64,000 bases of DNA, taken from contig JAKAGT010000014.1 in assembly GCA_021825585.1 (NCBI GenBank), positions 23,129 through 87,128 of the forward strand. Reading direction: 5' to 3'. How positions within the stretch are numbered: the first letter of the stretch is position 1; every line of letters starts with the position of its first letter. The position numbers were made by a program, and so were the translations under genes. Positions 3,274 through 52,086 of this stretch are shown here, in pieces. This DNA is from Bacteroidota bacterium (GTDB lineage: Bacteria > Bacteroidota > Ignavibacteria > Kryptoniales > JAKASW01). Under the pieces are notes generated by a model. That model saw nothing but the letters and a program-made list of their open reading frames with translations. It was not told where the DNA came from and did not search any database.

Positions 3274-4878
3274 ATGCAGTATCAATTCCTTGGAATTGGG
3301 TATCTGACGTGGATTACTTTTCTGCCTATCTTGGGAATGATAGTGGTTCTGCTCATCCCGAGAGCGAGTACAAATGCGATGAAATGGACGGCGCTGGGAG
3401 CTACAATATTGCAGCTCGTATTTGCGGCGCTGATCTGGATCAATTTCAACCCGGCCCTCACCGGCATAAACGACGTTAGCAAATTCCAGTTTGTCGAGAA
3501 GGCAACGTGGATTAATCTTCAGGGAGTGGGCTGGTTCGGACATGTGGTGATCGAGTACTTCCTGGGTATCGACGGGCTGAGTCTTCCAATGATCGTCCTG
3601 ACGTCGCTGATCTCCTTCGTCGGTGTGGTTGCGTCCTGGAACATCAACAAGGCCCAGAAGGGGTACTTTGCGCTTTACCTCCTGCTCGACACGGGTATGA
3701 TGGGCGTGTTTGTTGCGCTCGACATGTTCCTTTTCTACATGTTCTGGGAAATCATGCTTCTCCCGATGTACTTCCTCATCGGAATTTGGGGAGGTCCGAG
3801 GCGGGAATATGCTGCCATCAAGTTTTTTCTCTATACTCTGCTCGGGTCCGTCCTGATACTTCTTGTCATGCTTGCCCTCTACTTCAGCGTAAGCATCAAA
3901 GATCCGGTAACCGGCCAGATGACGCATACGTTCAATATGCTGGCAATGATGAACCCGGCCAACTACGATCCCAACTCCATTCTCGGCGGGATCGGGACAT
4001 ACTGGAGGGACGTGGCGTTCATCGCCCTGTTCATAGGCTTTGCCATCAAGGTGCCGATTTTCCCGTTCCACACATGGCTTCCGGACGCACACGTCGAAGC
4101 GCCGACCGCAATCAGCGTCATCCTGGCGGGCGTGCTGCTGAAGATGGGAACTTACGGGTTCCTCAGGATCAGCTTTCCGATTTTCCCTGATGCCATGCTG
4201 AAGTACGCATTCCCTCTGGCAATCTTAGGCTTTATAAATATCGTCTATGGCGCGCTCTGTGCGATGGCACAGACCGATTTCAAGAAACTTATCGCCTATT
4301 CCAGCATCAGCCACATGGGCGTCGTTCTCCTGGGCATCGCGGCGATGAATACGCAGGGAGTATCCGGCGGCGTGCTGCAGATGTTCAACCACGGCGTAGT
4401 GACTGCAATGCTCTTCCTTGTAGTCGGCGTGATTTACGACAGGGCGCACACGCGCGGCGTGAACGATTTCGGCGGACTCGCGAACCAGATGCCTGTCTAC
4501 ACCGGGATCATGACGGTGGCTTTCTTCGCGGCAATCGGGCTGCCGGGTCTCAGCGAGTTTGTGAGCGAGATGCTCTCCTATCTCGGAGCGTTCCAGACGT
4601 TCCAGTGGGTCACGATCTTCGCCAGCATCGGAATTCTCCTGACGGCGGGCTACATGCTCTGGACTTTGCAACGGGTGTTCCTTGGCCAGCTCCCTGAGAA
4701 ATGGAAGGGCCTTCCCGACGTAAACGGCAGAGAACTTGTGGCTTTTGTCCCGCTTATGGTCGTAGTTATTCTGCTCGGCATCTTCCCGTCGATTCTTCTC
4801 CACCCGATGAACGCCTCCCTGGATCATCTGGTCGATTTCGTTCACAGGGTGGGAACCGGCTTGACTGCCGTAAAGTAA
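3274..4878 (+). CDS. nuoM: NADH-quinone oxidoreductase subunit M
   Basis: 534 aa, antiporter-like (FPFHTWLPDAHVEAPTAISVILAGVLLKMG). GGAGG Shine-Dalgarno upstream. Confidence 0.95.
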   Translation: MQYQFLGIGYLTWITFLPILGMIVVLLIPRASTNAMKWTALGATILQLVFAALIWINFNPALTGINDVSKFQFVEKATWINLQGVGWFGHVVIEYFLGIDGLSLPMIVLTSLISFVGVVASWNINKAQKGYFALYLLLDTGMMGVFVALDMFLFYMFWEIMLLPMYFLIGIWGGPRREYAAIKFFLYTLLGSVLILLVMLALYFSVSIKDPVTGQMTHTFNMLAMMNPANYDPNSILGGIGTYWRDVAFIALFIGFAIKVPIFPFHTWLPDAHVEAPTAISVILAGVLLKMGTYGFLRISFPIFPDAMLKYAFPLAILGFINIVYGALCAMAQTDFKKLIAYSSISHMGVVLLGIAAMNTQGVSGGVLQMFNHGVVTAMLFLVVGVIYDRAHTRGVNDFGGLANQMPVYTGIMTVAFFAAIGLPGLSEFVSEMLSYLGAFQTFQWVTIFASIGILLTAGYMLWTLQRVFLGQLPEKWKGLPDVNGRELVAFVPLMVVVILLGIFPSILLHPMNASLDHLVDFVHRVGTGLTAVK

Positions 4879-4900
4879 AAGATAAGGATGTATTTATAAG

Positions 4901-40097: not shown

Positions 40098-42362
40098 TTG
40101 AACAGAATAACTCTACTACTTGCTACCCTGGTGTCTGTCTCCTCATCTTTATTTGCGAGCCAGGACCGAGACTCGACTAATGCGACGCTCTTCGTCGTGA
40201 AAGCTGTCAAGGTGGATGGTAACGTTACTCTCACCGGTCGACTTACAGATCCATTGTGGAAATCGGCGCCGCGGGCTGAGCTCAACTACGAGATCCAGCC
40301 TGGAGATAACACTCCGGCCCCGCAGGCAACTACGGTGATGGTACTCTACAATTCACAGTACCTGTACTTCGGTTTTAATTGTCACGATACGAGTCCTTCT
40401 CAAATACGCGCTCATGTGACCGACCGGGATAATATTTTCCAGGATGATTTTGCCGGCGTAATTCTGGATACCTACGATGATCACCAAAGGGCGTACGAGT
40501 TTTTCGTGAACCCTTATGGAATTCAGGCTGACCTGATGAGGAACGGGAACAACGAAGATGCGAGCTGGGATGCGGTGTGGTATTCAAAGGCCGCCATGAA
40601 TGACAGCGGGTACACGGTTGAGATGGCGATACCTTTCAAGAGTCTGCGTTTCCCGACGTCGAAGATTCAGGATTGGGGATTAGAGATGTTCCGTAATTTG
40701 CCGAGAGACAGCCGGGTACAGATTTCCTGGGTCAAGTTGAATCTTAACGATGCTTGTCTTCTCTGCCAGACTGGTACACTGGAGGGCCTCAAGGGCCTGC
40801 AGTCGACGGGCTCATTGGAGGTTCTCCCGTACGCAATGGGGCTTGAGAGCGGAGGTATTTATAACACCGACGACCCGGAATCGCATTTCTCAAACGGACC
40901 GGTGAAGGGGAGAGTCGGCGGCGGGCTCAAGTATGCCCCGACGCCCAGTATGTCCCTTGAAAGCGTCGTCAATCCCGATTTCAGCCAGGTCGAGTCGGAT
41001 GCGGTCCAGATAAGTGTGAACACGACTTTTGCTCTCTTCTACCCTGAAAAGCGTCCCTTCTTCATGGACGGCAACGATATCCTCAGCACTCTGATTCAGG
41101 CGTATTACTCACGGATGATCAACGACCCCCTGGGGGCCGGAAAAGTGATCCAGAAATCCGGTCCATGGTCTGTGGCTTATCTTGCGGCCGAGGATGTCAA
41201 CTCGCCGTTCATCGTAGCCGGCGAGGAGGGAAGTGTTTCCGATAACAGCGGTGACAACACTTTCGCGACTCCGTTTCATTCGTTCTCAAACATATTGAGG
41301 GCCAGATATAACTTCGGCATCCAGTCCTTTGTCGGTGCGCTCGGGACGACGCGGAATTTTACGAATGCGCACAACTATGTCGGCGGTGTCGATTGGAATC
41401 TGTTCTTCTCACATAACTATACATTCGACGGGCAGCTCCTCCTTTCAAATACACGTGAATTGAACGATACAAGTCTCGTTTCCGATCCCACTTATTTCGG
41501 CAACACCCGGTTCACAAAAGCCTTTGACGGGCAGGAATATGACGGGACGGGGTTCCAGGCGGATTTCAGGCGGGACGCGAGGCACTACAGCTTCAGACTG
41601 ACTTATAAGGATTTCTCTCCGACGTTCCAGGCTGAAGACGGTTATGTCTTTTCAAACGACCTTCGGACAGCCGACATGGAACATTCGTTGTTCTTCTATC
41701 CAAATACCCCCCTTGTCGATAATTGGGGAGTCGATGTGGAATCCGGCCTGCACTACGATTACCAGGGGGTGAGGAAAGAGAGATGGGTTGTACCCACTCT
41801 CATCCTGAATCTCAAGAGCCAGACGCAATTGACCGCGAGCTACTTCCTGGTGAATGATGAGCTCTTCCACTCGGTGAATTTTACAAGAGTGAATAGGTGG
41901 CAGTTCCAGCTGGAAACGAACCCGATGAGCTCTTTGACTTTCAGCCTGAACGCGTCTGCCGGTAGATTCATTTACCGGGAAGACCAGCCGGCTTTAGGAG
42001 CCGGACACGACATCAGTGCCGAGCTGGTGCTGAGACCGACCGACAAACTCACGCTGACGATCGACTACGCAAGGTCGCGCCTGTCAGATATTGCGGGCGG
42101 AGAACTTCTTTTCGACGGATACATCTCGAGGGTCGAAGGCGTGTACCAATTCAGCGACAGGCTTTTTGTGAGGTTGATCGGCCAGTACGACGAGTTCAAT
42201 AAGGCAGTCGAGGTCGACCCGCTTTTCAGCTACAAACTGAACCCGTTCACCATCTTTTATGCGGGGTCGACACACGACATGCAGGATTACGGAAGGCCTT
42301 ATGGTGTCGTTCAGACTGCCAGGGAATTCTTCATAAAACTGCAGTACCTGTGGCGCAGCTAA
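40098..42362 (+). CDS. Secreted CBM9-like / DUF5916-type protein
   Basis: TTG start, signal peptide, and an N-terminal block (VDGNVTLTGRLTDPLWKSAP...YLYFGFNCHD...DDFAGVILDTYDD) that I recognise from CBM9/DUF5916 proteins. The long remainder is rich in beta strands. Confidence 0.55.
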   Translation: MNRITLLLATLVSVSSSLFASQDRDSTNATLFVVKAVKVDGNVTLTGRLTDPLWKSAPRAELNYEIQPGDNTPAPQATTVMVLYNSQYLYFGFNCHDTSPSQIRAHVTDRDNIFQDDFAGVILDTYDDHQRAYEFFVNPYGIQADLMRNGNNEDASWDAVWYSKAAMNDSGYTVEMAIPFKSLRFPTSKIQDWGLEMFRNLPRDSRVQISWVKLNLNDACLLCQTGTLEGLKGLQSTGSLEVLPYAMGLESGGIYNTDDPESHFSNGPVKGRVGGGLKYAPTPSMSLESVVNPDFSQVESDAVQISVNTTFALFYPEKRPFFMDGNDILSTLIQAYYSRMINDPLGAGKVIQKSGPWSVAYLAAEDVNSPFIVAGEEGSVSDNSGDNTFATPFHSFSNILRARYNFGIQSFVGALGTTRNFTNAHNYVGGVDWNLFFSHNYTFDGQLLLSNTRELNDTSLVSDPTYFGNTRFTKAFDGQEYDGTGFQADFRRDARHYSFRLTYKDFSPTFQAEDGYVFSNDLRTADMEHSLFFYPNTPLVDNWGVDVESGLHYDYQGVRKERWVVPTLILNLKSQTQLTASYFLVNDELFHSVNFTRVNRWQFQLETNPMSSLTFSLNASAGRFIYREDQPALGAGHDISAELVLRPTDKLTLTIDYARSRLSDIAGGELLFDGYISRVEGVYQFSDRLFVRLIGQYDEFNKAVEVDPLFSYKLNPFTIFYAGSTHDMQDYGRPYGVVQTAREFFIKLQYLWRS

Positions 42363-42891: not shown

Positions 42892-42933
42892 AGCCGCAGC
42901 AGCTTTTCGAATTGGGTCGAGACCGCTGCGGCT
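42892..42933 (-). terminator. Hairpin after the cytochrome operon (possible terminator)
   Basis: AGCCGCAGC (42892-42900) pairs with GCTGCGGCT (42925-42933), a 9-bp stem around a 24-nt loop, 27 nt after the stop. On the minus strand it is followed by CUUCUUC. Confidence 0.3.
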
Positions 42934-42960: not shown

Positions 42961-43761
42961 CTAATGCATATTGCTCAGCTGCTTGCCATCGTAGAATCTG
43001 TCTTTATGTGAGAGAGAGTAGACGTAGTTTGCCAAATCCCATCTTTGCTTGTCGGTCAGTATTTGCGCGTATGACGGCATCGGGGTTCCGTTGAGCCCCG
43101 TACTGAAGATGAGATAGATCTTTTGCGGACTCCTTCCCATTTTGATATCCCAATAATGAGTCAGGTTCGTGGGTTGGATATGATGCCCCTCGTCATCTGT
43201 CACGGTAGGTGCAGCCGGACCGTTTCCTTCGCCGGTGATGCCATGGCAGCTCCAGCAATGCATGTTCAGGTAAACCTCGCGGCCACGCTCGATACTGTTC
43301 AACGTGTAAGGTATCGGAGTTGAAATCCTGACGGTGTCCAGCGGGTACTGGGACGAATCGCTGAAAGCCGGTGAGAGTGTCTTGATGTACTCTACAACCG
43401 AGTACTGATCTGCGATGCTCATTTGTGCGAAGGACGGCATTGCGGTGTGGTAAATGCCTGAATTTATTGTCCTTAGCAGGTCGTAGTTCGTGGGGAGCTC
43501 TCCGGAAGCTGTACTGCGGAACTTGTAAACTCCGAGTTTGAAATCTCTGGGCTTCGTTCGGAGGGAGACCGAGACGGGGCCGCTACCGTCACCGTTGTCG
43601 CCGTGACATGGTGCGCACGCCTCGTGATAAACTGCCTTGCCTCGCGCCACGCTCACCTGGTCCGAGCCGTTGAAACTCGTGGCGCAGGAGTATAGAGCGA
43701 GAGATAATGAAAAAGCCGCCACCAGTGCTGTAAATTTGCCAACTTTCGTTTTCATTTTCAT
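42961..43761 (-). CDS. Dihaem c-type cytochrome, probable lipoprotein
   Basis: 266 aa with the leader ..FSLSLALYSC. Two CxxCH motifs (CAPCH, CWSCH), each followed by a Met-Pro ligand motif (TAMPSF, TPMPSY). GGAAGGGGG Shine-Dalgarno, 9 nt after the upstream stop. Confidence 0.8.
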   Translation of the reverse strand: MKMKTKVGKFTALVAAFSLSLALYSCATSFNGSDQVSVARGKAVYHEACAPCHGDNGDGSGPVSVSLRTKPRDFKLGVYKFRSTASGELPTNYDLLRTINSGIYHTAMPSFAQMSIADQYSVVEYIKTLSPAFSDSSQYPLDTVRISTPIPYTLNSIERGREVYLNMHCWSCHGITGEGNGPAAPTVTDDEGHHIQPTNLTHYWDIKMGRSPQKIYLIFSTGLNGTPMPSYAQILTDKQRWDLANYVYSLSHKDRFYDGKQLSNMH

Positions 43762-43770
43762 CCCCCTTCC

Positions 43771-44982
43771 TCAGAATCCCACCAGAACGCCGAGTGTCGT
43801 CAGGGTCGTCTTCGTGTCGCTCCCGGCGGCAGGCGTGTTGTCGTCAAGATAGCTGAGCTCAGCATATGCGCCCACGTTCGGGGCAAAATGATAACGAATT
43901 CCTCCGGTCCATTGATTCTGCTTTTCACTTGTCTGATTCACATCGACAAAATCATATCTGCCGTAGATGAAAAATTTCTCCGGGACAATCAGCACATTCA
44001 GTCCAAGAAAACCTCCATCCATTGTCTGTTTTATCCCGACGATGTTGTCGTCCGTGGCGCTCATGTACTGGAACGACAGATCGAATCTCTTGGTCCAGGG
44101 GTCATTTGCCTCGACGGCAAATCCATATCGGTTCATATTATCGGTCACGTTGTTTACTGCAAGCTCCTTGCCCCCGTAGTAGTACAATCCTAATCTGAAA
44201 GGGGCGTTGTCGATGTAAGCGGTCTGTTCAAGCATCAGGAAGTTAGCTTCGTTTGAATTGAGGGGGTCACCTCCATCCGTTCCATCGCTTACTGCCGCTT
44301 CATAGCGGAGGCCGTCCAATATCTGAGGGAAGAAACCGTACACTGACGCGGCCCACTGCGGGTCGGCTATCAGCAGCGTACCACCAGCCGGGTTGTAGTC
44401 GTAGATGAGATAATCTGCAGATTCGACGATCGTCGTGTTGTCCGGAAATGTGTTCCACAGGCGGAAGCGCCCGAACCTGAAATTCAGATTGCTCTGCCCG
44501 TCGGGCCCCGCGAGATTGTTGAACATTATGCTCATCGTTTCTATCGAAGGCGAATACTGGCCCGGCCCGGTGATCCCAATGGGTGCGGCCAGAAAGTAAC
44601 TCAAGTGTTTCGCTATAGTCCCCGCGGTAAAAAGGTCAAGTCCGCTGGGTTGAAAGGTTAACTCGTTGCTCGATGTCTTAATGCCTCCTGTCGTCGTTAC
44701 GGTGTGTGCCGACACAAAGGACGGATAGAATACGAATGAGAGCGACAGCGGTTCCTGGGCCCAGATCGGTTCGGACTCGTCCGTTCCCGGCAGCTGGTAG
44801 CCGTTGATCTGGAAGCGTCTCCCGTAGTCGTTGAGGACCGGCGGCACGGTATGACATCTGAAACAACTGACATGGTATTTTCTTGCAAAGAGTGGGATAG
44901 CCCCGGCCTGATTCGTCGTAACCGCGACCGATGCTACAGCAAACCCCAATAGAATAGCAAAACGAAAGGGAACAAGTCTCAT
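43771..44982 (-). CDS. Outer-membrane beta-barrel protein with an N-terminal CxxCH (fused cytochrome-porin architecture)
   Basis: 403 aa: signal peptide (..TTNQAGA), C40-F-R-C43-H44 within FARKYHVSCFRCHTVPPVLNDYG, then an alternating-hydrophobic, Gly/Tyr-rich sequence ending ..TLGVLVGF. GGAGGG Shine-Dalgarno. Confidence 0.6.
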   Translation of the reverse strand: MRLVPFRFAILLGFAVASVAVTTNQAGAIPLFARKYHVSCFRCHTVPPVLNDYGRRFQINGYQLPGTDESEPIWAQEPLSLSFVFYPSFVSAHTVTTTGGIKTSSNELTFQPSGLDLFTAGTIAKHLSYFLAAPIGITGPGQYSPSIETMSIMFNNLAGPDGQSNLNFRFGRFRLWNTFPDNTTIVESADYLIYDYNPAGGTLLIADPQWAASVYGFFPQILDGLRYEAAVSDGTDGGDPLNSNEANFLMLEQTAYIDNAPFRLGLYYYGGKELAVNNVTDNMNRYGFAVEANDPWTKRFDLSFQYMSATDDNIVGIKQTMDGGFLGLNVLIVPEKFFIYGRYDFVDVNQTSEKQNQWTGGIRYHFAPNVGAYAELSYLDDNTPAAGSDTKTTLTTLGVLVGF

Positions 44983-45057: not shown

Positions 45058-45792
45058 CTATTTCAGAGTGAAATCGACGGTGGCGGTCTTGCCCGCAGTC
45101 ACGGTTACTTCCTGCGTCTCTTCGATTGGCTTGGAGAATTCCGGTTTCCCGCTTATGTCCTTGGTACCCCATCCTTCATGCCACATCACAATCTTGTATT
45201 TGCCGGCAGGAACGTCCGCGAGTTTAAATGCACCTTCTTTGTCCGTGGCAGTTGCGAATCCATCGCCGGAAACATAAACATAGCAATTCATCCACGGATG
45301 TACATCGCATCTCATCATATACATCCCAGGCTTTCTTACATGCTGCACGACCTTCATCCCCTTGACGGGTTCGGCAATATTGAATGCTGTCTCGTTATTT
45401 GAAGCGAAGTAGCCGTGAACATTATGGAACAGCGGGTCGCTGTTGGTAACGGTGAACGCCTCTCCATGATTCACCACAAGAACATGCGGATGATAGGCGC
45501 AGTCTTTCTGATCGATGTCATACTTCGATGGTGATACCTTTTCGGGTTTGGCCTTTGCTCCCTCGATGTAAACCACAGCATATTCAACGCCTCCTCCTTT
45601 GGAGACAATGAGTCTGTCGAGAGAAGCCTCGTTGCCGCACACGTTGTTGTTGTACGTTACTTTATATGGCTTCATAGTCGGGGCCGACCCGGCGAATGTC
45701 ACTGTTCCTTGCACCGTGCCTGTCTGTCCATAGGCAAGTCCAAAACCTAACAATACTGCAAAAATGGATGTGATGATCTTGTGGGCTTTCAT
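45058..45792 (-). CDS. Periplasmic cupredoxin-like (type-1 copper) protein flanked by Ig-like segments
   Basis: 244 aa with a signal peptide. Ligand-like pattern FHNVHGY ... MRCDVHPWM (His; Cys-x2-His-x2-Met). AAGGAG Shine-Dalgarno. Confidence 0.7.
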   Translation of the reverse strand: MKAHKIITSIFAVLLGFGLAYGQTGTVQGTVTFAGSAPTMKPYKVTYNNNVCGNEASLDRLIVSKGGGVEYAVVYIEGAKAKPEKVSPSKYDIDQKDCAYHPHVLVVNHGEAFTVTNSDPLFHNVHGYFASNNETAFNIAEPVKGMKVVQHVRKPGMYMMRCDVHPWMNCYVYVSGDGFATATDKEGAFKLADVPAGKYKIVMWHEGWGTKDISGKPEFSKPIEETQEVTVTAGKTATVDFTLK

Positions 45793-46055: not shown

Positions 46056-48116
46056 TTATTCTTCTCCGCGAATAGACCTATACTTCTTCAGCTTGCCTTC
46101 TACGACCGCTGCCAGCAGATCCGGATCAACCGGCTTGGTCAGATAATCGTCGACGCCAAGCTGAACCCCGGCTCGAACAAAGAAACTCTCGTGCATACCG
46201 CTTATCAGTATGAAGGGTACCTTCTTCAGGTGAGGAATTTTCTGTACCTGTTCATAAAACGAAAAACCATCGCCCTCCGTCTCCGAGAATAAGACGTCTG
46301 AGATGATTATGTCCACGTTCGTCGTCTCGAGGACTTTCAAGGCGGCGGTAGGGCTATTGCCGGTCAGGACACCGTACCCATATCCCTCGAGCACCTTGGT
46401 AACTGTGTCGAGAAGTTCGTGGTCGTCATCGACCAGCAAGATCACTCCTTTCAACACTGCCCGTTGGAAGGCAGCGAATATGAAAGGTCCAAGTTTAGAA
46501 GACTCCTTCCCTGTGATCTGGTATTTAGATTTAAGCTCTTCGAGGGCCCCCTCTTCATCCGACCTGATTCGCCCGTTTTTTATTTCTTTTTCGACCTCCG
46601 TCGTATAAGCCTGCAGCCTGATCTTGCTTTCGCACTCAAGATGGTCCTCGAAGGTTAACTCGAGGATCTCACGCAATTGCATCAGTTCCACGGCGGTATC
46701 TTCTGTAATCGGCGGACTGGCCCACGCCTTTCTGAGCCGCCCCCGGTAAATCTCGAGCTTCTGTTCGAGAGTGTCGGGAAGTTTGACGCCAAGCAATTTC
46801 AGTCTCTTCTCAAGTCCGTACTCGACTTCGCTTGTTGCTTCGTCCAGCCGAGCCTCGAATTCTCTCTCCATCTCAGCCTTCAGGGCAGCCCTCGTCTCAT
46901 TGAGCTTTCGCTGTTCTTCCTCTACGACACGCTTCCTTTCCATCTCGAGCTTGGTCTGGCTCTCCACTATCTCCTTTTTCATCCGCATCTCTGTTTTCTC
47001 GCGGGCGGCTCTGAGTTCGGCTTCAAGCTTAGTATCGTATTCGGCCTCGAGCTGCTTCCTCATCTCACTTTGCTTCTTCCCGAGTTCATTCCGTTCATTC
47101 TGGTTTATTTCGTCCAGACGTTTTTTCAGTCCGGCCTGCGACTCGAGTTCAAGCTTTTTGTATCTCTCTTTGTACAGGTTTTCAAGCTTGTCCTGCTGGA
47201 AATTGATTTCAGCCTCGATATTCTTCTTGTCTGCCTGCCACTTTTCGTCAAATTCCTTTTGCAGACGTGCCCGGACCTCTTCAATCGATCTGTCCCGTTC
47301 TTTTGCCTGCTCGGCTATGGTAGAGGCTTTTACCCTGGCAATCTCTTCGGAGAGTTTTTCCTCGAATTCTCCCTCCATCTGCTTCTTGCTGTCTTCGATC
47401 GCCTTCCGCTGTTTTTCCAGCAGGCTCTGTTTTTCCTTTACAGCCGATTCCCTCAGCTCAAGCATCGATTTCTCGTAAAGCGAACTCATTTCGGATCGGG
47501 TTTCTTCTTCAGCCTTCTTACGTTCGCTGGCAAGCTGCTGTCGAAAGGCCGCCTCCATCTTCTCGACCTCGATTTCAAAGTTCTCCTTGTACTGCTTCTC
47601 CAGATCTTTTCTGAATCGCTCCTTTTCCTTCTCAAGGCTCGCGATCAAGGAGGCACGTTCAGCTTCCTGCCATTCCCGTTCCTTCTTCAAGGCGCCTGCA
47701 ATTCTCTGTTCGGCCTTTCTGATTTCATCGGTGAATTTCTTGTTGTATTCTCCTTCGAGCTTCTTCTCGATATCTGCCCGAATTGCCTCCTCATTTATCT
47801 GTGGTTTCTCTTCCTTCGGCTTGGTCTCTTTCTTCCCGGGAATTTCCTCCTGTTCCACCTCTCCCTGCGGCTGAACTTCTACAGGCGTCCTGGTGCCCCC
47901 TTTTTCGAGCGCCTGGAGTCGTTCCTCAAGTGCCAGCGCGTAGCCGTTGTTTGGATCGACCGCTCGAACGGATTCGAGCTCCTCTCTCGCCTCTACGTAT
48001 TTGCCTTCTCTAATGTTCTTGTCGGCCAGACGCAGGTGTGTTGCGATTTCCTGCCTGGTACTATCGGACGATTCTGGCGGTACCTGTTTGGGACCTTGAT
48101 TCCTCTTGAATAGCAT
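46056..48116 (-). CDS. Response regulator: N-terminal TPR-like motif, very long E/K/R-rich coiled coil, C-terminal receiver domain
   Basis: 686 aa. The REC domain has the canonical residues (LLVDDD, IIISDVLF, ILISG, YLTKP). No DNA-binding or enzymatic output domain is recognisable. Confidence 0.75.
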   Translation of the reverse strand: MLFKRNQGPKQVPPESSDSTRQEIATHLRLADKNIREGKYVEAREELESVRAVDPNNGYALALEERLQALEKGGTRTPVEVQPQGEVEQEEIPGKKETKPKEEKPQINEEAIRADIEKKLEGEYNKKFTDEIRKAEQRIAGALKKEREWQEAERASLIASLEKEKERFRKDLEKQYKENFEIEVEKMEAAFRQQLASERKKAEEETRSEMSSLYEKSMLELRESAVKEKQSLLEKQRKAIEDSKKQMEGEFEEKLSEEIARVKASTIAEQAKERDRSIEEVRARLQKEFDEKWQADKKNIEAEINFQQDKLENLYKERYKKLELESQAGLKKRLDEINQNERNELGKKQSEMRKQLEAEYDTKLEAELRAAREKTEMRMKKEIVESQTKLEMERKRVVEEEQRKLNETRAALKAEMEREFEARLDEATSEVEYGLEKRLKLLGVKLPDTLEQKLEIYRGRLRKAWASPPITEDTAVELMQLREILELTFEDHLECESKIRLQAYTTEVEKEIKNGRIRSDEEGALEELKSKYQITGKESSKLGPFIFAAFQRAVLKGVILLVDDDHELLDTVTKVLEGYGYGVLTGNSPTAALKVLETTNVDIIISDVLFSETEGDGFSFYEQVQKIPHLKKVPFILISGMHESFFVRAGVQLGVDDYLTKPVDPDLLAAVVEGKLKKYRSIRGEE

Positions 48117-48260: not shown

Positions 48261-48926
48261 TCATCCGTTATCCGCGGCGTGGTGCTTAATTATCTTCGCA
48301 TCGACCAGGAACACTACATCCTCGGCAATGTTTGTAGCATGGTCCGCAATCCGTTCGATGTGTTTGAGGGCGACGATCAAATGCGCTCCCGGTTCGACAA
48401 AATCCGGGTTCTTCTTCATCTCGCCTATAACGAAATGGAATTTCTGCCGGTTCATTTCGTCCACGACATCGTCCTCTTTACATATGCGTCGCGCCAGTTC
48501 GGCGTCTGCATGGATAAATGAATCTATGCTGTCGTGTACCATACGTCTTGCTACGTCGCCCATCTCGAGTATCGCCGTTGCCCGTACAAACCCGTGGTAG
48601 TTCTTCAGCGGTTCCACGCGCTGCGCTATGTTGACGGCCACATCTCCTATCCTCTCGAGCTCATGGTTGATCTTAATGGCGGACACTACGAGGCGCAAAT
48701 CTGTGGCGACGGGCTGTTCCAGTGCCATGATCTCGTCTACCTGCTGATCCAGAAGGTTATCGAACTGGTTCACCTTTTTTTCGCTTTCATATACCTTTTC
48801 GGTCTCCCCCACATCGCCGTCGTGAAGTGCCCGAAAGGCAAGATCAAGTTGCGAATCGACCAAACTCCCCATCTTTATAAGGTTGGATCTGAGTTTCTCC
48901 AGCAGATCCTCGAAATGCCTGTGCAT
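48261..48926 (-). CDS. phoU: Phosphate signalling complex protein PhoU
   Basis: 221 aa with two PhoU repeats (ELERIGDVAVNIA / HIERIADHATNIAEDV). Confidence 0.9.
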   Translation of the reverse strand: MHRHFEDLLEKLRSNLIKMGSLVDSQLDLAFRALHDGDVGETEKVYESEKKVNQFDNLLDQQVDEIMALEQPVATDLRLVVSAIKINHELERIGDVAVNIAQRVEPLKNYHGFVRATAILEMGDVARRMVHDSIDSFIHADAELARRICKEDDVVDEMNRQKFHFVIGEMKKNPDFVEPGAHLIVALKHIERIADHATNIAEDVVFLVDAKIIKHHAADNG

Positions 48927-48983
48927 AAGATTCTCTCCTTAGTCGAGTGGGAACAATAAGTCCCACACTTTTAAAATTACACT

Positions 48984-50036
48984 TTATTTCTTTAAAAAAA
49001 AGCTGAACTCAGATCCCTTTCCAACCTCACTCTTTACCTCAATTTTGCTGTTGTGAGCCTCTACAATGTGCTTAACAATAGCAAGACCGAGCCCCGTTCC
49101 GCCGACACTCCTGCTCCTGTCCTTGTCCACCCTGTAGAATCTCTCGAAGATTCTCGCAAGGTGTTCCTCTCCTATCCCGGTGCCGTTGTCCCTGACAAAG
49201 ACTCTGACGGAGTTCGGAAGTTCCGCGAACCCCACTTCGATCTTTCCTCCCCTGTCGGTGTATTTTATTGAATTATCTATCAGATTGGATATCGCCTGTC
49301 TGAGTCTGTCCCTGTCTCCTAGAACAAGAACTTCGTGGGAATCGGAACGGTATTCGAGCAGGATGTCTTTTTTCTTCGCGATAGGCTGCATTTCCTCGGT
49401 CAGGGTACTTAGAAACTGAGAGATATCGAAATATCGGAAGCTCATTCTCATTTCGCCGCTTTCGATTCTCGAAATTTCGATGAGGTCATTAAGCAGGGTG
49501 TTCAGTCGCTCGGAATGCTGGTATGCCTTCTGAAGAAAATCCCTGTTCACATTCTCGTCGTCGATGGCCCCGTCTATCAGAGTTTCGATGAAGCCCTGGA
49601 TGCTGAATATGGGCGTGCGCAATTCGTGGGACACGTTAGCGAGGAACTCGCTTCGCACCCTCTCGAGTTTTTCGAGCTTTGCGATATCCTCCTTAAGGTT
49701 TCCGACGATCTGATTTACGAGTTTGCCTATCCGGCGGAGTTCCGGCGTCCCCGATTCCGGCAGACGAACGGAAAGATCCCCGGCACTGATTCTTTGCAGT
49801 GCATCCACTATGGTGTTTAGTATCTTAGTCTGACGGTTTCTGAAAGAAAGGAATACCTCTTCAAAAATATAGAACAGGGAAGCGCCAACGATCGCCGTAA
49901 TTACCAGATGATTTTCAAGGAATGTCGCCTGCAGTGAAAGAAGGTCCTCGAGAATCAACAGGAGCAGATATACGACCGCCCCTGCTGCGATCGCAATAGC
50001 TATCCTTGTCTTGTAGTCAGAAAAGAGTCTGGTCAT
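48984..50036 (-). CDS. phoR: Sensor histidine kinase (PhoR-like)
   Basis: TM region plus HAMP domain, H-box FLANVSHELRTP, and N/G boxes (DNSIKYT, DNGTGI, GGTGLGLAIV). 4-nt overlap with the upstream regulator gene. Confidence 0.8.
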   Translation of the reverse strand: MTRLFSDYKTRIAIAIAAGAVVYLLLLILEDLLSLQATFLENHLVITAIVGASLFYIFEEVFLSFRNRQTKILNTIVDALQRISAGDLSVRLPESGTPELRRIGKLVNQIVGNLKEDIAKLEKLERVRSEFLANVSHELRTPIFSIQGFIETLIDGAIDDENVNRDFLQKAYQHSERLNTLLNDLIEISRIESGEMRMSFRYFDISQFLSTLTEEMQPIAKKKDILLEYRSDSHEVLVLGDRDRLRQAISNLIDNSIKYTDRGGKIEVGFAELPNSVRVFVRDNGTGIGEEHLARIFERFYRVDKDRSRSVGGTGLGLAIVKHIVEAHNSKIEVKSEVGKGSEFSFFLKK

Positions 50037-50716
50037 TCCGCCTTAAATTTGTATCCGACCCCTTTGATGGTTTCAATCATCTCAGCGTGGTCGCCGAGCT
50101 TTTCACGGATCTTGCGTATATGCACGTCCACCGTTCTGTCTCCTACGTAGACATCCGAGCCCCAAATCCTGCTTAGAAGTGTCTCACGGGATATGACCTT
50201 GCCTTCATGGGAAGCCAGGTAATATAGTATCTCGAACTCTTTCCGGGGGAAGAACACCTGTTCGCCCCCGATTTTGACCAGGTAGCTTTCTCTGTCTATG
50301 ACAACCTTCCCGAAGTCAATGCTTTTATTCTCCTCGCTCTTGACACCTTCATATCTCCGGAGCACTGCACGGATCCGCGAAACTAATTTCCGCGGGCTAA
50401 TTGGTTTCACGATATAATCGTCCGCTCCGAGCTCAAGTCCGAGGACTTCGTCGAATTCCGCACTTTTCGCAGTCAGGAAAATGACGGGGATATCCATCGT
50501 CCTTTCGTTTTGGTTCAGTGCCTTAATCACCTCGTATCCGTCCTTGCCCGGAAGCATAATGTCCAGGAGGATAACATCCGGTCTGACTTCGGTCGCCTTC
50601 AGAAGCGCTCCGTCGCCGGTAGCAGCGGATTCAACCCTGAAGCCTTCGCGTTCAAGGTTATAACGTATAAGTTGAACAATGTCATTCTCATCGTCAACAA
50701 CAAGGACGGTTTTCAT
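50033..50716 (-). CDS. phoB: OmpR/PhoB-family response regulator
   Basis: 227 aa with REC (VVDDEND, ILLDIMLPG, LTAK) and a winged-helix domain (TVDVHIRKIREKL, IETIKGVGYKF). Confidence 0.85.
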   Translation of the reverse strand: MKTVLVVDDENDIVQLIRYNLEREGFRVESAATGDGALLKATEVRPDVILLDIMLPGKDGYEVIKALNQNERTMDIPVIFLTAKSAEFDEVLGLELGADDYIVKPISPRKLVSRIRAVLRRYEGVKSEENKSIDFGKVVIDRESYLVKIGGEQVFFPRKEFEILYYLASHEGKVISRETLLSRIWGSDVYVGDRTVDVHIRKIREKLGDHAEMIETIKGVGYKFKAE

Positions 50717-50889
50717 TTAGAGCTCCTATGTTTGCGGGGCAAGAGGATGGGGCTTGTCGCACGACACATGTCCCCTACGGGTACGCGTTACTATGTCCGT
50801 GACAGTAAACTGCGTTCCGCTTTCAGACTCGGCCCGGCCACACGCGTGGGGACAAGCCAGCCAGGATTCCCGGGATGCAGTTTCAGGCG

Positions 50890-50962
50890 AGGCGACGGGC
50901 GGATTCGAACCGCCGCATAAAGGTTTTGCAGACCTCTCCCTTAGCCACTTGGGTACGTCGCC
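50890..50962 (-). tRNA. tRNA-Cys (GCA)
   Basis: Hand-folded cloverleaf: GGCGACG/CGTCGCC acceptor, anticodon arm GAGGT-CTGCAAA-ACCTT, T-arm GGCGG-TTCGAAT-CCGCC. CCA is not encoded. Confidence 0.9.
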
Positions 50963-51010: not shown

Positions 51011-51047
51011 CTGAAACCTACAGACTTAACAAAACTACTAGTTCGAG

Positions 51048-51120
<73 letters not shown>

Positions 51121-51393: not shown

Positions 51394-51456
51394 TCGGGGC
51401 GGTGGGATTCGAACGGACGACCTTGGCGCGAAGCGCGCTACGCTCTAACCGGGCTG
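51394..51456 (-). other. tRNA-like 3' fragment (degenerate copy)
   Basis: Matches tRNA-Pro over the D-loop, variable loop, T-arm and 3' acceptor strand, apart from two T-stem mismatches (GTCCG vs CCCAC). The anticodon arm is replaced and its stem carries one mismatch, and there is no 5' acceptor strand. Confidence 0.7.
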
Positions 51457-51696
51457 TTGGGTTGTTAAGTCCATGAGGTATCTTTTCGCACCGCGTGCCT
51501 TGATTTGCTTCTCTCGCCTGACGGCCTCAGGGCGTGTCGGGAACTCTTCTGCGTGAACTAGCTGCCACGGAATACCCGGCTTTATGGATTTGGTTTCCCC
51601 TGAGTTGTGTTCGATCAGTCGATTTTCAAGATCTTCGGTACTACCCGTGTAGTATCTATCAGTCCTCTTACTATACAGAATATAGACTTTGTACAT
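51445..51696 (-). CDS. Small GIY-YIG (URI-domain, YhbQ/COG2827-like) nuclease-family protein, copy 2
   Basis: 83 aa: MYKVYILYSKRTDRYYTGSTEDLENRLIEHNSG... (GIY-YIG core, Arg, Glu, Asn). The ORF-track start at 51750 runs through the tRNA-like fragment and is unlikely. Confidence 0.8.
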   Translation of the reverse strand: MYKVYILYSKRTDRYYTGSTEDLENRLIEHNSGETKSIKPGIPWQLVHAEEFPTRPEAVRREKQIKARGAKRYLMDLTTQQPG

Positions 51697-51702
51697 CGAT
51701 CG

Positions 51703-51765
51703 TCGGGGCGGTGGGATTCGAACCCACGACCTTGGCGCGAAGCGCGCCACGCTCTAACCGGGCTG
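51703..51765 (-). other. tRNA-like 3' fragment (stems intact)
   Basis: CAGCCCGGTTAGAGCG + TGGCG-CGCTTCG-CGCCA + AGGTC + GTGGG-TTCGAAT-CCCAC + CGCCCCGA. Outside the anticodon arm it is identical to tRNA-Pro. It lacks U33 and a 5' acceptor strand. Confidence 0.7.
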
Positions 51766-52005
51766 TTGGGTTGTTAAGTCCATGAGGTACCTTTTCGCAC
51801 CGCGTGCCTTGATTTGCTTCTCTCGCCTGACGGCCTCAGGGCGTGTCGGGAACTCTTCTGCGTGAACTAGCTGCCACGGAATACCCGGCTTTATGGATTT
51901 GGTTTCCCCGGAGTTGTGTTCGATCAGTCGATTTTCAAGATCTTCGGTGCTACCCGTGTAGTATCTATCAGTCCTCTTACTATACAGAATATAGACTTTG
52001 TACAT
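51754..52005 (-). CDS. Small GIY-YIG nuclease-family protein, copy 1
   Basis: Protein identical to copy 2. The ATG lies 6 nt (CGATCG) after the tRNA-Pro discriminator base. The last 3 codons and the TAG stop lie in the tRNA-like D-loop sequence. Confidence 0.8.
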   Translation of the reverse strand: MYKVYILYSKRTDRYYTGSTEDLENRLIEHNSGETKSIKPGIPWQLVHAEEFPTRPEAVRREKQIKARGAKRYLMDLTTQQPG

Positions 52006-52011
52006 CGATCG

Positions 52012-52086
52012 TCGGGGCGGTGGGATTCGAACCCACGACCTCCTGGTCCCAAACCAGGCGCTCTAACCGGGCTGAGCCACGCCCCG
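52012..52086 (-). tRNA. tRNA-Pro (TGG)
   Basis: CGGGGCG/CGCCCCG acceptor, D-arm GCTC-AGCCCGGTTA-GAGC, anticodon arm CCTGG-TTTGGGA-CCAGG, T-arm GTGGG-TTCGAAT-CCCAC, discriminator A. Confidence 0.9.

Follow-up and report, generated by a model that had tools for sequence, protein, structure and literature searches.

Genes at the locus

The DNA analysed here, a 64-kb window (64,000 nucleotides) of contig JAKAGT010000014.1 from a Kryptoniota bacterium (assembly GCA_021825585.1), carries on its minus strand a gene for a predicted fused monohaem cytochrome c-porin of the Cyc2 family (cyc2; Table 1). Public labels of this gene and its relatives are only "hypothetical protein," "Gram-negative porin," and "cytochrome c domain-containing protein." An earlier annotation made from the letters alone (the sequence-only reading) had described the open reading frame (ORF) as a single-haem motif fused to a porin-like barrel. 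Its ORF boundaries, quoted peptides, haem site residues C40, C43, and H44, and C-terminal VLVGF proved exact in translation, and the coding strand, which it had not given, can now be added. The start codon is ATG, with the ribosome-binding site GGAGG ahead of it.

The gene lies in the middle of a three-gene operon, between an upstream gene for an amicyanin-like blue-copper (cupredoxin) protein and a downstream gene for a dihaem cytochrome c. This assignment follows from the short gaps between the genes (75 bp from the cupredoxin gene to cyc2 and 9 bp from cyc2 to the dihaem gene, all on the same strand), Shine-Dalgarno sites at both the dihaem and cupredoxin genes, a terminator scan that called none between the three genes, and the conservation of the gene pair in relatives. 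That scan, which also looked for sigma-70 promoters, was uninformative overall because its counts fell short of the shuffled expectation. A possible stem-loop 3' of the dihaem gene (AGCCGCAGC ... GCTGCGGCT, then CCTTCTTC), read by eye and not called by the simple terminator scan, gives weak evidence for a candidate operon end.

Because a single-sequence AlphaFold2 model of the upstream protein was unusable (predicted local distance difference test [pLDDT] score of 40), an orthologue-profile search was used instead, in which residues 82 to 174 matched amicyanin structures (E = 5e-5). In this alignment, HNVH falls on the HNVH of amicyanin and CDVHPWM on CTAHPFM, and the type-1 copper ligands H123, H126, C162, H165, and M168 are invariant in 14 orthologues. 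The C terminus of the same protein matches Pfam CarboxypepD_reg (E = 1.9e-9). Also invariant in the 14 orthologues are a WHEGW motif (residues 204 to 208) in this second domain and, toward the N terminus, C52 and C98. These residues could form a second metal site or a disulfide, and no known family match accounts for the WHEGW motif and the extra cysteines.

The dihaem protein is homologous to PDB 6H5L chain B (E = 1.2e-53), which we take to be the dihaem redox partner of an octahaem enzyme. Its N terminus, ending LALYSC, may be a lipoprotein signal. A 2026 preprint cites 6H5L as a Kuenenia stuttgartiensis HAO-type structure.

Table 1. Positions of cyc2, its parts, its operon partners, and nearby features in the window
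Feature	Position	Strand	Basis or description
Amicyanin-like protein gene, upstream of cyc2	45058..45792	-	Secreted, 244 aa; amicyanin-like type-1 copper (cupredoxin) domain and CarboxypepD_reg-like domain
Predicted Cyc2-family fused monohaem cytochrome c-porin gene (cyc2)	43771..44982	-	403 aa + stop; ORF, Porin_4, family profile, Cyc2 consensus
Predicted signal peptide, residues 1-28 (MRLVPFRFAILLGFAVASVAVTTNQAGA, predicted cleavage AGA/IP)	44899..44982	-	By inspection: basic n-region, hydrophobic core, A-x-A site
Predicted haem c domain, residues 29-76 (IPLFARKY-HVS-CFRCH-TVP-PVLN-DYGRRFQINGYQLPG)	44755..44898	-	Most conserved part of the family
CxxCH haem attachment site (predicted), C40-F-R-C43-H44	44851..44865	-	Invariant in 117/117 diverse members
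Predicted porin beta-barrel, residues 77-403, C terminus ...LGVLVGF	43774..44754	-	AlphaFold2 barrel, Foldseek, barrel-only profile
Dihaem cytochrome c gene, downstream of cyc2	42961..43761	-	266 aa (CAPCH, CWSCH); Pfam Cytochrom_C x2, 4.4e-26
Possible stem-loop 3' of the dihaem gene	42892..42933	-	Read by eye
Gene for 754-aa secreted protein	40098..42362	+	CBM9-like and DUF5916 domains
Gene for 686-aa protein	46056..48116	-	N-terminal TPR, C-terminal response-regulator receiver
phoU, phoR-like kinase gene, phoB-like regulator gene	48261..50716		
Small GIY-YIG-like ORF, first	51445..51750	-	
Small GIY-YIG-like ORF, second	51754..52005	-	
tRNA genes (tRNA-Cys, tRNA-Gly, tRNA-Pro)	50889..50962; 51047..51120; 52011..52086		

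Fused cytochrome-porin architecture

The central proposal of the sequence-only reading, that a one-haem N-terminal module is fused to a barrel behind a signal peptide, was borne out by CxxCH conservation, AlphaFold2 modelling, and Foldseek. The signal peptide shows Sec-type features by eye, its residues 4 to 21 are helical in the AlphaFold2 model, and the -1 Ala of the predicted cleavage site (A28) is 91% conserved across the family. The CxxCH is indeed the only one in the protein, and C40 and C43 are the sole cysteines among its 403 residues.

An initial search returned 43 homologues, chiefly from Kryptoniota and Bacteroidota metagenome-assembled genomes (MAGs), in whose alignment IPLFARKY..C..CH...P.LN.FGRRFQ.NGYQLPG was near-invariant. 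Searching 1.84 billion cluster representatives exhaustively with a profile extended the family to 3373 proteins at E<=1e-3, with 1072 at E<=1e-10. Among 228 family proteins examined, 214 carry CxxCH, exactly one each, and in 213 it lies within the first 110 residues; the exception to this early position, P0028, has an N-terminal extension of ~270 residues. The 14 proteins without the motif are N-terminally truncated fragments by their profile coordinates, so that full-length homologues always carry it, the opposite of the frequent absence that the sequence-only reading had named as speaking against it. Across 117 diverse members, aligned with a mean column identity of 12%, C40, C43, H44, and G54 are invariant, and A28, P30, F32, R34, P48, L50, and N51 are at least 90% conserved. 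Invariance at this divergence, together with the single CxxCH in nearly every member, argues that the haem motif is more than chance. In the family-wide alignment A2, column 64 is Met in 36% of sequences and Leu in the window protein; H126, M321, and H365, candidates for the sixth haem ligand in the Kryptonia clade, are conserved inside that clade, and all three lie within the barrel.

The remainder of the protein is a predicted outer-membrane barrel. An AlphaFold2 model built from 26 homologues (pLDDT 70.7; predicted template modelling [pTM] score 0.70) contains a closed beta-barrel at residues ~80 to 402. The sequence-only reading had named a soluble fold as the outcome that would speak against it. 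Foldseek against PDB returned the 16-strand porins OmpT, Omp32, OprO, OprP, and PorB instead, with a probability of 1.00 and E values of ~1e-12 to 1e-13 (1.1e-12 for OprO 4RJW and 7.4e-12 for OprP 2O4V) at sequence identities of 9 to 16%. The top overlay was with 16-strand PorB (target-normalised template modelling [TM] score 0.77), and the 18-strand MOMP fitted more poorly (TM 0.48). DSSP counted 19 strand segments, which must include one or more bulged strands, and from the model the barrel is read as 16 strands, possibly 18. OprO and OprP are the templates also reported for Cyc2 of strain PV-1. By sequence, the Pfam Porin_4 match at residues 168 to 382 (E = 3.2e-9; 37.4 bits against a cutoff of 27) describes the barrel and not the whole protein, and the Cyc2 alignment, run as a profile against PDB sequences, returned nothing meaningful; by sequence, therefore, there is no relative with a solved structure.

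An ordinary diffusion porin, perhaps phosphate related, in which CxxCH is incidental or vestigial, would account for Porin_4 being the only Pfam match, for one source calling a homologue a "Gram-negative porin," for the OprO/OprP-like fold, and for phosphate-regulation genes beside the locus (phoU, phoR, and phoB 3 kb off in the window, and pstSCAB-phoU abutting the module in thermophilic Kryptonia). The invariant C, C, and H of the 117 diverse sequences, the strict coupling of cyc2 to a dihaem cytochrome c gene, and a whole conserved 48-residue haem domain ahead of the barrel make this explanation very improbable.

Membership in the Cyc2 family

By the definition of Keffer et al. in 2021, a Cyc2 protein is at least 365 amino acids long (most are ~400) and has a signal peptide, one CXXCH, an AxPxFAR[Q/K][T/Y] motif ahead of CXXCH that those authors call unique to Cyc2, PxL 4 residues after CXXCH, and a 16-strand porin resembling OprO/OprP (PMC8406198). 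The window protein has each of these features. It has 403 residues, a signal peptide by inspection, one N-terminal CXXCH, and, in the AlphaFold2 model as searched by Foldseek, an OprO/OprP-like barrel of about 16 strands. The signature motif reads A28-I-P-L-F-A-R-K-Y36, followed by three residues (HVS) and C40FRCH44; the published wording, "5 amino acids upstream," is not exactly reconciled with this three-residue gap. The PxL motif is P48-V-L50, with P48 at H44+4 (TVP lying between), and its P and L are 96% and 95% conserved.

In plasmid sequences searched with tblastn, homologues turned up on Ralstonia megaplasmids and one Methylocystis plasmid. Ralstonia is among the genera named as carriers of Cyc2 homologues (PMC8406198). 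The Ralstonia protein reads ANPIFARQT-GLN-CASCH-TVY-PEL (ANPIFARQTGLNCASCH...PEL) and the Methylocystis protein AVPSFARQT-GQP-CATCH-TAF-PEL, the gene for the latter being followed by three c-type cytochrome genes; spacing between motif and CxxCH is equal in these two proteins and all family members listed. The window protein aligned with the Ralstonia protein by BLASTP at E = 1e-13 over residues 7 to 131, hhalign of alignment A1 with it gave a probability of 97%, and the family profile A2 matched it at E = 5e-36 over profile positions 14 to 391. A profile of the Kryptonia-clade barrel alone matched 103 of 112 distant full-length members at E<1e-5. The E values of the last two tests refer to small sets and not to a whole database, being a single comparison in the first case and computed within the 112 members in the second. 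Homology thus runs through both haem and barrel modules, making the fusion ancestral.

From motif and profile, the window protein is almost certainly a member of the Cyc2 family. The sequence-only reading had allowed for a distinct family of convergent architecture, in which a haem site was gained at the N terminus of a porin independently of Cyc2. The barrel is in fact very divergent from its proteobacterial relatives, the Kryptonia barrel-only profile has no significant match to the Ralstonia or Methylocystis proteins, and the window protein has no NCBIfam match. Against independent origin stand the Cyc2-specific motif with identical spacing, the unbroken series of intermediates in the profile search, the recovery of distant members by the barrel-only profile, and coverage of the Ralstonia protein end to end by the family-wide profile, so that little chance is left for convergence and that hedge can be dropped. 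When alignments A1 and A2 were used for further homologue searches by word index, only the close clade and no named Cyc2 came back, and the cluster members of ten distant profile matches returned no names.

A conserved module beside different terminal enzymes

The operon was compared with 23 related loci from GTDB genomes, collected by a contig scan with subfamily-specific patterns, a method that leaves classical iron oxidisers outside its reach. The hosts are Kryptoniota (including Kryptonium, Thermokryptus, and Chrysopegis), Ignavibacteria, Kapaibacterium, and one MAG labelled Alphaproteobacteria. A dihaem gene lies directly downstream of cyc2 in 21 loci, and the remaining two contigs end before it; a cupredoxin gene lies upstream of cyc2 in 13. 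Identity declines with taxonomic distance, being 65 to 97% inside the close clade, 42 to 44% to thermophilic Kryptonia, and 36 to 41% to Ignavibacteria and Kapabacteria. A divergent Cyc2-family protein was also seen in a Candidatus Kryptoniota bacterium (P0239, 388 aa, sharing 37% identity with the window protein in an alignment that spans 21% of its length), and some Kryptoniota may hold more than one Cyc2 type.

In the window the flanks of the operon are housekeeping only, namely complex I subunits, 2-oxoglutarate dehydrogenase, BamA, and succinate dehydrogenase. In four relatives the module adjoins respiratory genes. Locus L005, on a complete chromosome with an orthologue 73% identical, has COX1-COX3-COX2, a UbiA-family gene (possibly haem O synthase), and a cytochrome c domain protein directly upstream. 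Locus L015 has a CcoI-like P-type ATPase and a cbb3-type CcoN-CcoO fusion downstream. Locus L016, arranged as L015, has a monohaem cytochrome c, a large ORF, and a truncated COX1-family gene downstream, and NnrS upstream (3694..4887). In L021 (1260..11613), from the Ignavibacteria-like MAG labelled Alphaproteobacteria, nosD, nosF, and a nosY-cytochrome c fusion lie upstream, a NorB-type gene lies downstream, and an extra dihaem cytochrome is inserted. Such flanks are the neighbourhood expected of a periplasmic electron-delivery chain, and those of L021 and L016 hint at coupling to denitrification or nitrogen oxides.

One tentative view, which we regard as doubtful, is that the cyc2-dihaem pair, usually with the amicyanin-like protein, is an electron-uptake module of long standing in Kryptoniota, Ignavibacteria, and Kapabacteria, passed on for the most part by vertical descent, that has docked beside differing terminal enzymes (aa3, cbb3, and NorB/Nos). 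If this were true, nominally heterotrophic soil and hot-spring bacteria could oxidise Fe(II) with oxygen or nitrogen oxides, and the history of their Cyc2 would differ from that of photoferrotrophic Chlorobium, for which a recent gain by horizontal transfer has been inferred.

Proposed mechanism of electron uptake

The published Cyc2 model has Fe2+ entering the pore, reduction of the single haem, and electron transfer through periplasmic carriers to a terminal oxidase (PMC8406198, PMC12442345). We hold with high confidence that the window gene encodes a Cyc2-family fused cytochrome-porin, which would work by a comparable electron-uptake mechanism as an outer-membrane conduit that feeds periplasmic carriers, with Fe(II) as the probable donor. 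The protein would be exported by Sec, and the cytochrome c maturation system would attach one haem c at C40/C43 with H44 as axial ligand. Its C-terminal ~325 residues would fold as a roughly 16-strand outer-membrane barrel, with the small haem domain at or inside the periplasmic mouth. A dissolved donor, most likely Fe2+, would enter the pore and reduce the haem, and the electron would then pass inward to the co-transcribed periplasmic dihaem cytochrome c and amicyanin-like protein, and from these to terminal enzymes coded elsewhere in the genome. Kryptonia genomes encode both ccm genes and cytochrome c oxidase (PMC4737851).

Several observations weigh against this interpretation. No terminal oxidase and no cox genes were found in the 64-kb window, and the cupredoxin is absent from thermophilic Kryptonia among the 23 loci compared. 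No distal haem ligand (His or Met) is conserved family-wide in alignment A2, and residues 21 to 76, the haem domain region, have low confidence in the AlphaFold2 model, a result to be expected when the cofactor of such a domain is left out. Family membership was judged by published criteria, with the Ralstonia protein as a proxy for validated Cyc2 proteins (PV-1, A. ferrooxidans, and Leptospirillum Cyt572) and for the FeGenie hidden Markov model (HMM); the literature asks for BLASTP at E<=1e-5 to a Cluster 1 to 3 reference, or an HMM score that passes the FeGenie cutoff, together with a position inside the Cyc2 tree (Keffer et al. 2021; FeGenie). Kryptonia have been described as heterotrophs (PMC4737851), and Cyc2 homologues also occur in organisms not known as iron oxidisers, with few members tested biochemically (PMC7029218).

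The last two points also favour a possible, less probable alternative, in which the protein is a Cyc2-family conduit whose physiological role is not energy-yielding iron oxidation. Its variants include electron exchange with some other soluble redox species, for example Mn(II), Cu(I), or humic-type shuttles, outward reductase activity, detoxification, and supply to nitrogen-oxide reductases in place of oxygen reductases. One report discusses Cyc2-like proteins for Mn-oxidising Manganitrophaceae (PMC9040806), ferric iron respiration has been proposed for Kryptonia (PMC4737851), and the module lies between nosDFY-type and NorB-type genes in L021 and beside NnrS in L016. However, every family member with biochemical tests oxidises Fe(II) (PMC8406198, PMC7029218), a narrow single-haem pore fits a dissolved cation, and oxygen reductases neighbour the module in L005, L015, and L016. 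Electron uptake from Fe(II) is for these reasons the preferred interpretation.

Comparison with known iron oxidation systems

Known fused cytochrome-porin iron oxidases include Cyc2 of Mariprofundus ferrooxydans PV-1 (Cluster 1), Cyc2 of Acidithiobacillus ferrooxidans (Cluster 2), and Cyt572 of Leptospirillum (Cluster 3) (PMC8406198, PMC7029218). The window protein shares with them the signal peptide, one CXXCH that lies ~10 residues after the mature N terminus, the AxPxFAR[Q/K][T/Y] and PxL motifs, a length of ~400 residues, an OprO/OprP-like barrel of about 16 strands, and a paired periplasmic c-type cytochrome. Unlike them, it has a clade-specific extended motif, IPLFARKY[HN]xSCFxCHTxPPxLNDFGRRFQxNGYQLPG, and comes from a member of the Kryptoniota (FCB group, a non-phototrophic relative of Chlorobi) known here from sequence. 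The barrel fold is common to OprO/OprP (4RJW, 2O4V), Omp32, PorB, and OmpT, none of which has a haem domain.

The operon resembles the rus operon of Acidithiobacillus, ordered cyc2-cyc1-cup-coxBACD-rus (PMC10654088), in its logic of an outer-membrane Cyc2 followed by a dihaem cytochrome c, with a blue-copper protein added; relative L005 completes the parallel with its adjacent aa3-type oxidase and UbiA-family gene. In contrast to the rus operon, the dihaem protein is a 6H5L chain B homologue where rus has a c4-type Cyc1, the copper protein is amicyanin-like with a CarboxypepD_reg-type domain and not rusticyanin, the cupredoxin gene comes first, and oxidase genes are not adjacent in the window. 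The functions are analogous, but the carriers are not orthologous, and cox genes adjoin the module only in relative L005, so the operon is not of the rus type.

Outer-membrane electron transfer through a haem-holding barrel also occurs in MtoAB, PioAB, and MtrCAB, complexes in which a 26-strand barrel surrounds a decahaem cytochrome and the parts are divided among two or three proteins (PMC8406198). The window protein is one polypeptide with one haem and a small barrel, and an Mtr-like complex was rejected on these grounds. Apart from the dihaem neighbour the window contains no further cytochrome, and there is no multihaem gene close by.

The Cyc2 family is already large and well known, and the finding extends a known system. 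Surveys with FeGenie have recorded Cyc2 genes in MAGs of Ignavibacteriales and of other FCB-group lineages, most of these genes being of the Cluster 3 type (PMC8478452, PMC7914226). In the literature searched there was no explicit link between Cyc2 and Kryptonia, and papers naming both do not connect them; Eloe-Fadrosh et al. proposed iron respiration in Kryptonia via multihaem cytochromes encoded in a different cluster from cyc2 (PMC4737851). Cyc2 is the main genetic marker for inferring microbial iron oxidation from genomes. Its recognition here makes Kryptoniota candidates for iron oxidation, or at the least for electron uptake across the outer membrane. What this adds, modestly, is a conserved partner set with variable docking to terminal enzymes, including oxygen and nitric-oxide reductases, which provides testable hypotheses for the periplasmic part of the pathway.

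Surrounding genes in the window

Directly upstream of the operon, the 686-aa protein has between its TPR and receiver domains a very long Glu/Lys-rich, coiled-coil-like middle region (Table 1). It is kept beside the module in the closest loci (L001 to L004 and L007 to L009), and it may be a regulator. The gene for the secreted 754-aa protein is convergent to the operon, and its position is also kept in the closest loci.

The Pho genes of the window lie 3 kb upstream of the module. In L010 (8030..12318), phoU-pstB-pstA-pstC-pstS directly abuts the dihaem gene, and phoU is likewise placed in L011, L012, and L023. The presence of Pho genes near the cyc2 module across Kryptoniota may be no more than synteny or may point to regulation that ties iron to phosphate.

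Further away, two tandem, near-identical small GIY-YIG-like ORFs with a common 83-aa core adjoin the genes for tRNA-Cys, tRNA-Gly, and tRNA-Pro. The recurrence of "GAVGFEPTT" in antisense suggests that duplication of the GIY-YIG-like ORF took tRNA-like fragments with it.

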